Positions 52,063-53,504 are shown, counted from the first letter of the stretch. The stretch is 64,000 nucleotides of DNA from Escherichia coli (GCF_003334305.1 NZ_QOWS01000019.1), one strand, 5' to 3'. The notes: generated by a model not told the origin, from the sequence alone. Translations and numbers: made by a program.

Positions 52063-52911
52063 TCAGATTTTCAGCCGTGCCTGTTCCTGCAGCAGTTCCA
52101 GATGATATGCAGCAATAGCGTTTACCACCCCTGCCGTCATCCGTGCGTCGGCGATCGCTGAGTGTGCCTGCCCTTCCCAGGTCAGTCCGGCCTGGCTGGC
52201 AGCACAGGCCAGTGAAATCGTGCCATAGCGGTTGGTGGCCCCATAATATCCTGCAGCCAGCTCCATCGCACAATATACCGTCAGTTCTTCCAGCCAGTCA
52301 GCCGGATCGCTATGTGCGGCAGCAGTCTGTTTCAGAATGCGGATGTCGAACCGGGCATTAAAGATAATTACTGGTCGGTCCCCGATTGCATGACGCAGTT
52401 GCCGCGCCACATCTGTCCATGATGGTGCGCCGCAGAGAGCCTGCTCGCTGATACCATGCACAGCGGCGGCCTGCGCCCCGATGGCGACCGTGGGCTTCAG
52501 CCTGGTTTCAAATACCACCTGACCGGACGCATCGGTCAGGCCGATTTCCAGAGCTTCCGCGGTATTGTCCAGTCCTGTCGTTTCAGTATCCAGAAAGAGC
52601 GGTGCCAGACTCAGCCAGTCATATGCCTGCCGTGCCATCCGGCCACTGGTGCTGTTAAGTCTGGATAAAACGGAAAGTCGCTGGCCAGCCAGAAGTTGTT
52701 TACTCGTCAGTGGGCGTTTCTCACGCATCGGAACACAGTCTGCAATTCGGTATACAGCGAACCTGCCACCATAAGTGTTTTTATACCACTTAACCGGCTC
52801 AGCACCGGGGGCTGGCTTCATTCTGAATTCATCGCGCAGCCGTTCTTTCGAGAAACACCTGTCTTCGGCAATCGCCTGCGCACGTCTGGTGGCCAGCTCA
52901 TCATTATTCAT
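52063..52911 (-). CDS. DnaQ-like 3'-5' exonuclease (DEDDh family)
   Basis: 282-aa ORF with Exo I motif LFLDTETTGLD and C-terminal HSAIADARMTAGV (Exo III). Confidence 0.75.
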   Translation of the reverse strand: MNNDELATRRAQAIAEDRCFSKERLRDEFRMKPAPGAEPVKWYKNTYGGRFAVYRIADCVPMREKRPLTSKQLLAGQRLSVLSRLNSTSGRMARQAYDWLSLAPLFLDTETTGLDNTAEALEIGLTDASGQVVFETRLKPTVAIGAQAAAVHGISEQALCGAPSWTDVARQLRHAIGDRPVIIFNARFDIRILKQTAAAHSDPADWLEELTVYCAMELAAGYYGATNRYGTISLACAASQAGLTWEGQAHSAIADARMTAGVVNAIAAYHLELLQEQARLKI

Positions 52912-52956
52912 GGTTCTTGCATCTCCGTCAGACCTTTTTATATCCGGACAGCCCCT

Positions 52957-53238
52957 CTATGGCCACTTCTGTGCAGTATGCAATACACGCAGGATATACA
53001 CTTTTCCCCACTGGCTGTCGACCTCATAAACCAGAACAAAATGCGGGTGAATAACCAGTTCCCGGGTACCTTCCACACGACCGTTGCGGCCTTTATACGG
53101 CTGCCCGGCCAGGCTGCTGGCTGAATAACCAATCCGTTCGTCCAGTTCAATGGCGGCCATCAGGTTCTGCTCCGCAATGTACTCACGAATGCGCTTCCTG
53201 TCCTGGCTGGCCAGCATGGTCCAGAATATCTCCATCAT
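52957..53238 (-). CDS. Type II toxin, RelE/ParE superfamily
   Basis: 93-aa ORF; 4-bp overlap with the upstream antitoxin gene; a truncated copy lies at 40998-41180. Confidence 0.7.
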   Translation of the reverse strand: MMEIFWTMLASQDRKRIREYIAEQNLMAAIELDERIGYSASSLAGQPYKGRNGRVEGTRELVIHPHFVLVYEVDSQWGKVYILRVLHTAQKWP

Positions 53239-53504
53239 TTACCGGCGACTTTCCTGCTCATTTCATCCCGCCATGCAGCAGCGGAAGATTCGACCATGTC
53301 ATGGGGAAGCACATCGCCGCGCTCGAGTTGCTGACGTCCTGCCTCAACCTGGTCACGGAACCAGGTATTATGCTGCCGTTCCACGGTCTGGCGCATAAAA
53401 TCCCGGATTAACTGAGAGCCATTACGGTCCATGCTTTTTGCAGCGGCCATAAAAGCATCCTTCAGTTCAGCGTCAATTCTTAAACTCATATTAACCTGTG
53501 CCAT
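53235..53504 (-). CDS. Type II antitoxin (ribbon-helix-helix/ParD-like)
   Basis: 89-aa ORF immediately upstream of the toxin; a truncated copy lies at 41177-41374. Confidence 0.65.
   Translation of the reverse strand: MAQVNMSLRIDAELKDAFMAAAKSMDRNGSQLIRDFMRQTVERQHNTWFRDQVEAGRQQLERGDVLPHDMVESSAAAWRDEMSRKVAGK

Follow-up and report, generated by a model that had tools for sequence, protein, structure and literature searches.

In the 64,000-nucleotide stretch of Escherichia coli DNA analysed here, referred to as the window, three open reading frames occupy positions 52063-53504 on the minus strand, exactly where a preliminary description made from the sequence had placed an exonuclease and a toxin-antitoxin pair. 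Read in the direction of transcription these are yacA (ParD-I; 53235-53504), encoding an antitoxin of 89 aa with a possibly ribbon-helix-helix-like N-terminus, yacB (ParE-I; 52957-53238), encoding a predicted ParE-type toxin of 93 aa, and yacC (52063-52911), encoding a putative DEDDh exonuclease of 282 aa. The stop codon of yacA and the start codon of yacB overlap in an ATGA (GGT AAA TGA and ATG ATG GAG, respectively), which is consistent with the translational coupling of antitoxin and toxin that had been proposed; in RefSeq the start of YacB is taken at the second ATG and the protein is 92 aa long. Since yacC begins only 45 bp downstream of yacB, carries its own Shine-Dalgarno-like GGAG about 10 nt 5' of its ATG, and is separated from yacB by no promoter or terminator detected in our scan of the interval, it is probably co-transcribed with yacAB. 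One promoter candidate near yacC (52931-52903) was not accepted, as its -10 element falls within coding sequence.

The block is flanked by the colicin Ia gene cia (49997-51877, minus strand) and by IncFII repA (54420-55289, minus strand), both recognized as ORFs and from the annotation of identical plasmids, in agreement with the initial placement between colicin Ia and RepFIIA. The adjoining RepFIIA replicon appears complete, because a perfect DnaA box (54236-54244, minus strand) is found about 180 bp 3' of the repA stop codon and the CopA antisense RNA (55362-55453, plus strand) is matched in Rfam with 99 bits; a second antisense RNA, AS-pc02, is matched at 56440-56622 (plus strand) with 196 bits. 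Another nuclease gene lies beside the replicon, a 153-aa ORF at 55875-56336 (minus strand) with a signal-peptide-like start and staphylococcal-nuclease-like sequence, corresponding to the 'yigB putative nuclease' of pS88 (PMC3438092). Between the yacC stop codon and the cia start a strong promoter-like site was observed (51951-51979, minus strand; TTGACA-17-TAAATT, 10/12 matches), and just 3' of it, at about 51925-51945, the sequence CTGTATATGTATCCACA resembles by eye the LexA (SOS) box of a colicin promoter. Elsewhere in the window, a direct repeat of 146 bp with 90% identity links 20593-20738 and 23493-23638.

Identity with known plasmids and with ParDE-I

Among the 72,556 plasmids compared by megablast, many ColV/ColIa virulence plasmids, pS88 (NC_011747) and that of E. 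coli ATCC 11775 included, match a segment of 1.8 kb covering the block (51900-53700) from end to end with 100% identity. The identical plasmids bear the RefSeq names type II toxin-antitoxin system antitoxin YacA, toxin YacB and 3'-5' exonuclease, and in the paper on pS88 the genes yacA, yacB and yacC are named between repA1 and cia (PMC3438092). All tested ORFs of pS88 but one gave transcripts, yacA, yacB and yacC included, and no significant regulation of any of the three was reported in serum, urine or low iron (PMC3438092). An IncI-gamma/K1 plasmid displays the order repA-yacA-yacB-exonuclease, as in the window, and a single YacB accession, WP_001384452.1, is common to an IncF ColV plasmid and the IncI-gamma/K1 plasmid.

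The toxin-antitoxin pair can also be connected to a system with published function. ParDE-I was described by Kamruzzaman and Iredell (2019) from the IncI1 plasmid pJIE512b, with a toxin that GenBank variously annotates as YacB (PMC6614396). In Table S1 of that study pS88, entered as pECOS88 (CU928146), is given with 100% coverage and 98% nucleotide identity to ParDE-I, and the reverse cloning primer used for ParDE-I (PMC6614396) matches exactly positions 52882-52901 of the window, within the first 30 nt of yacC; the link between the window and ParDE-I rests on this table entry and this primer match. When cloned with its own promoter, the ParDE-I pair led to full retention of both low- and high-copy vectors, compared with loss from 50-60% of cells in the control, and ParE-I toxin alone caused growth inhibition, filamentation and SOS induction, effects neutralised by the co-expressed ParD-I antitoxin (PMC6614396). 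Accordingly, the plasmid-loss and toxicity assays suggested in the preliminary description are already published, for an allele 98% identical to that of the window.

Taken together, we consider that the block is the known yacA-yacB-yacC / ParDE-I module, which in IncI and many IncF plasmids comes after the replicon and is carried here by a pS88-type ColV/ColIa virulence plasmid, a reading to which we assign a probability of about 0.88. The block had been read correctly from the outset, yet it is already known and ordinary.

The exonuclease YacC

The point of remaining value in the block is YacC, which is very common, intact and confidently modelled. Residues 106-262 match Pfam RNase_T (E = 4.5e-15), and the protein carries Exo I (FLDTETTGL; D108 and E110), Exo II (NARFD; D189) and Exo III (HSAIADA; H250 and D255). 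These five residues align to the catalytic positions of Pol III epsilon and are at least 90% conserved among 40 homologues of 29-86% identity. The free-standing DEDDh exonuclease with Exo I and Exo III motifs noticed beforehand is thus borne out, with Exo II and the RNase_T match in addition, and a check for substitutions of catalytic residues returned none, all five being kept. In the AlphaFold2 model (pLDDT 96.9), an exonuclease domain formed by residues 104-282 (52063-52602, minus strand) adopts a Pol III epsilon-like fold with a long C-terminal helix, and it is preceded by a family-specific N-terminal domain of residues 1-103 (52603-52911, minus strand), in which two long helices follow a small alpha/beta unit. 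A Foldseek search with the model gave matches to epsilon, RNase T and Exo X at E-values down to 1.6e-8. The best of them are the Pol III epsilon structures 2ido, 2gui and 1j53 (target-normalised TM-scores 0.78-0.80), and PolC, DinG, RNase T and Exo X come next for the exonuclease domain. Judged by its motifs and modelled structure, YacC is predicted to be a DnaQ/DEDDh-fold 3'-5' exonuclease that requires metal and is catalytically intact.

A structural search with the N-terminal domain gave no convincing relative, only a weak Rad4/XPC-like resemblance. In two distant YacC homologues (P0181 and P0226) the N-terminal alpha/beta unit is doubled in tandem, with the motif L-R/K-x-x-F/L-x-hydrophobic-K/R-P … D-C, a sequence arrangement which suggests that the unit may be a repeatable binding module.

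Relatives of YacC were found by tblastn in 4,182 plasmids of many genera (about 6% of the 72,556) and in 86 phages. The two-domain architecture is common to the plasmid relatives, which range from 33 to 98% identity, and the phage relatives mostly lack the first 65-95 residues or so. The genes around them are diverse: in IncC plasmids a relative of 50% identity follows a tyrosine recombinase and precedes a Tus-like gene, in large Salmonella plasmids the relative overlaps a KfrA_N gene, in Photorhabdus it lies between PemIK and ParA, other relatives are found 3' of RepL genes, and in P2-like phages the gene belongs to an early operon, 5' of the replication nickase. A homologue of 49% identity follows an integrase in a metagenomic integrative element (L010, 3562-8832; ENA ERZ23499900), where it adjoins genes for ArdA-like (PF03230), ArdC-like, DUF1281, N6-methyltransferase and HigBA proteins, with a TraI_2 relaxase downstream; this gene set looks like an anti-restriction or establishment cluster. 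In the contexts inspected the family is confined to mobile elements, and since its members occur in such varied surroundings YacC is best regarded as a mobile-element module in its own right and not as a dedicated partner of ParE.

The literature searched on yacC, Ycg4D, plasmid DnaQ-like exonucleases and the IncC kfrA exonuclease yielded annotations only, with no functional study found. Because relatives recur beside genes for replication, recombinases, partition/KfrA and anti-restriction, the likeliest role of YacC is 3'-end trimming, and we hypothesize that the enzyme would trim DNA 3' ends while the mobile element replicates, recombines or establishes itself. The parts in plasmid maintenance, anti-restriction or defence suggested for it in the preliminary description are speculative. 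Going further, the family may be viewed as a large group of mobile-element exonucleases in which the N-terminal domain might target a DNA structure, so that YacC would serve a specific role in establishment, anti-defence or processing of intermediates and not a redundant housekeeping one, a proposal that we put forward only tentatively.

The more interesting alternative to 3'-end processing is that YacC acts as an anti-defence or establishment factor, degrading a nucleic-acid signal or intermediate of immunity or trimming incoming DNA. Besides the restriction of the family to mobile elements, this would fit the metagenomic homologue, which lies directly 5' of the ArdA-like, ArdC-like and N6-methyltransferase genes, as well as the PADLOC matches of YacC (CRISPR-associated DEDDh and PDC-S48), given that DEDDh domains are used in conflict systems. 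These matches are, however, generic and obtained with HMMs at the domain level only, yacC adjoins here the vegetative replicon and not a leading region, and no YacC phenotype has been reported in the literature searched, all of which leads us to consider an anti-defence function unlikely. Membership of YacC in a defence system proper was rejected, since yacC is flanked by yacB and cia, and neither cas nor other partner genes adjoin it.

It may also be asked whether yacABC constitutes a three-part system, in which the exonuclease cooperates with the toxin-antitoxin pair, for instance by processing the DNA ends that arise when gyrase is trapped by YacB, or acts as a second effector. The three genes are close together on the same strand, with the uninterrupted yacB-yacC interval described above, and their transcript fold changes in pS88 move together (PMC3438092). 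The distribution can be read in both directions: yacAB is found at a coverage of at least 80% in 1,656 plasmids, of which 1,196 retain the yacB-yacC junction, but in many of those without the junction homology ends exactly at the yacB stop codon. Likewise, relatives of YacC with 33-70% identity have unrelated partners (KfrA, PemIK, tyrosine recombinases, RepL, ArdA/ArdC), and those in phage early operons have no ParE nearby. In fact, since the published stabilising clone stops 30 nt into yacC, as does the toxic one (PMC6614396), yacA-yacB works without yacC and the pair suffices. A three-part system is consequently very improbable.

Likewise very improbable is the idea that YacC is a plasmid-borne stand-in for Pol III epsilon proofreading that alters replication fidelity. 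The nearest solved folds and the best NCBIfam matches of YacC are indeed those of Pol III epsilon, and some database records carry the name 'DNA polymerase III subunit epsilon', but YacC scores 55.3 bits against the dnaQ equivalog model TIGR01406, whose cut-off is 222.7, and 52.8 bits against NF004316, whose cut-off is 196. The C-terminal extension of Pol III epsilon tethers this subunit to alpha. In the YacC model this tail is missing, as the chain ends after a single helix following Exo III, and the N-terminal domain of YacC is absent from epsilon. On both score cut-offs and architecture, YacC was rejected as a Pol III epsilon subunit proper.

The toxin-antitoxin pair and its second copy

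The toxin had been described as RelE/ParE-type, and its membership of the RelE/ParE superfamily is confirmed, although only the ParE half of the label holds. YacB aligns with Pfam ParE_toxin from end to end (E = 4.7e-17), and among solved structures it is closest to ParE2 of E. coli O157 (5cw7, E = 3.5e-8; 5czf, E = 1.1e-7) and to 5ceg, all of them ParE proteins. That YacB is instead a RelE-type ribosome-dependent mRNA interferase, as some database records label it, is rejected as exceedingly improbable, since against a marginal pass of the broad subfamily model TIGR02385 (RelE_StbE; 31.8 bits, cut-off 27.9) stand the Pfam assignment, solved relatives that are without exception ParE, the failure of BLASTP to align YacB with E. 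coli RelE, and the published findings that ParE-I lacks residues R61, R81 and Y87 of RelE and provokes both filamentation and the SOS response (PMC6614396). By sequence, YacB is a ParE-type toxin and not a RelE-type one, and its biochemical target is assigned by likeness to ParE. Gyrase poisoning by ParE-I is a prediction in the published study, in line with the SOS induction and filamentation observed (PMC6614396).

The antitoxin is less readily classified. YacA matches PHROG 28287 (E = 7e-48), and its matches to RelB_DinJ (24.7 bits, under the cut-off) and to Pfam RHH_1/RelB (E of about 0.02-0.05) are weak; a search of solved structures found no relatives. From these weak profile matches, the N-terminus may be ribbon-helix-helix-like. 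A perfect 7-3-7 palindrome, TATATAC-TGT-GTATATA (53527-53543), was found by repeat search 23 bp 5' of the yacA ATG, and by analogy with ribbon-helix-helix antitoxins it is a plausible candidate operator for autoregulation, to which YacA would bind and thereby repress the operon. Further upstream, a G+C-rich hairpin followed by a T-run (53630-53644, minus strand), terminator-like by consensus match only, lies between the sequence on the ori side and the region of the yacA promoter, in which a strict sigma-70 scan called no yacA promoter.

Under the scheme that we favour for the pair, YacA would be labile and degraded in plasmid-free segregants, and the YacB so freed would poison DNA gyrase as other ParE toxins do. 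As a type II toxin-antitoxin addiction module of the ParDE family, yacAB helps virulence and resistance plasmids to persist, and increased tolerance of antibiotics and heat has been reported for it.

A second copy of part of the module lies at 41052-41585 (minus strand); it takes in yacA with its promoter as well as the 5' part of yacB, and is 95-97% identical to 53110-53655. The preliminary description had recognized a truncated copy at 40998-41374, and while the duplication stands its extent does not, the earlier limits being those of ORFs only. Comparison of the window with itself showed that 40713-41041 matches 49288-49615 (93%) and 40276-40640 matches 48937-49303 (91%), so that the duplicate at 40276-41585 is a mosaic of 48937-49615 and 53110-53655 that lacks 49616-53109, and with it imm, cia and yacC along with the 3' portion of yacB. 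Because the loss of 1 bp in codon 21 shifts the frame of yacA, and yacB is truncated, its homology stopping after about 43 codons, the second copy, which lies beside the colicin V export genes, is by its sequence a dead remnant, even if an internal ATG could still give an in-frame 65-aa C-terminal fragment of YacA. The palindrome is unchanged in the remnant and the T-run of the hairpin is deleted. On the upstream side of the remnant yacA promoter, 41614-41665 matches 52128-52178, in the Exo III-motif region of yacC, over 52 bp with 88% identity, a match that does not fit a simple deletion from a full copy.

Comparison with known systems

The closest known system is ParDE-I of pJIE512b, also found as YacAB in IncI and IncF plasmids and in Shigella pINV, which is the same locus with the same gene order and gene overlap, although the published assays concern an allele differing from that of the window in about 2% of nucleotides. 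In pINV of Shigella flexneri yacB is frameshifted and inactive (PMC7354431, PMC9455713), whereas the yacB of the window is intact. PaaA2-ParE2 of E. coli O157:H7 (5cw7, 5czf) shares with YacB the ParE fold and a full-length alignment (E = 3.5e-8 for 5cw7), and both this system and ParDE of RK2 are, like yacA-yacB, two-gene operons with the antitoxin first, but their sequence identity to yacAB is low and neither PaaA2 nor ParD displays profile-detectable similarity to YacA.

YacC has the fold of DnaQ and of DEDDh exonucleases such as Exo X and RNase T, together with the same five catalytic residues (D, E, D, H, D), but differs from DnaQ in falling far under the family cut-offs, in lacking the C-terminal tether of epsilon, in carrying a further domain of about 100 residues at its N-terminus, and in being encoded by mobile elements. 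The 'Col' gene set found after repZ in ColIb-P9 includes yacC (PMC8004404), the exonuclease being placed there, as in the window, between the replicon and the colicin genes. The YacC/Ycg4D-type 'putative exonuclease' of ColIb-P9, R64, IncC, IncP-1 and other plasmids has the two-domain architecture of YacC, and the 'DNA polymerase exonuclease subunit' of P2- and N15-like phages (PHROG 192 and 25825) is likewise a relative, in which the N-terminal part is mostly missing; across these plasmid exonucleases and their phage relatives, the neighbouring genes vary from one element to another.
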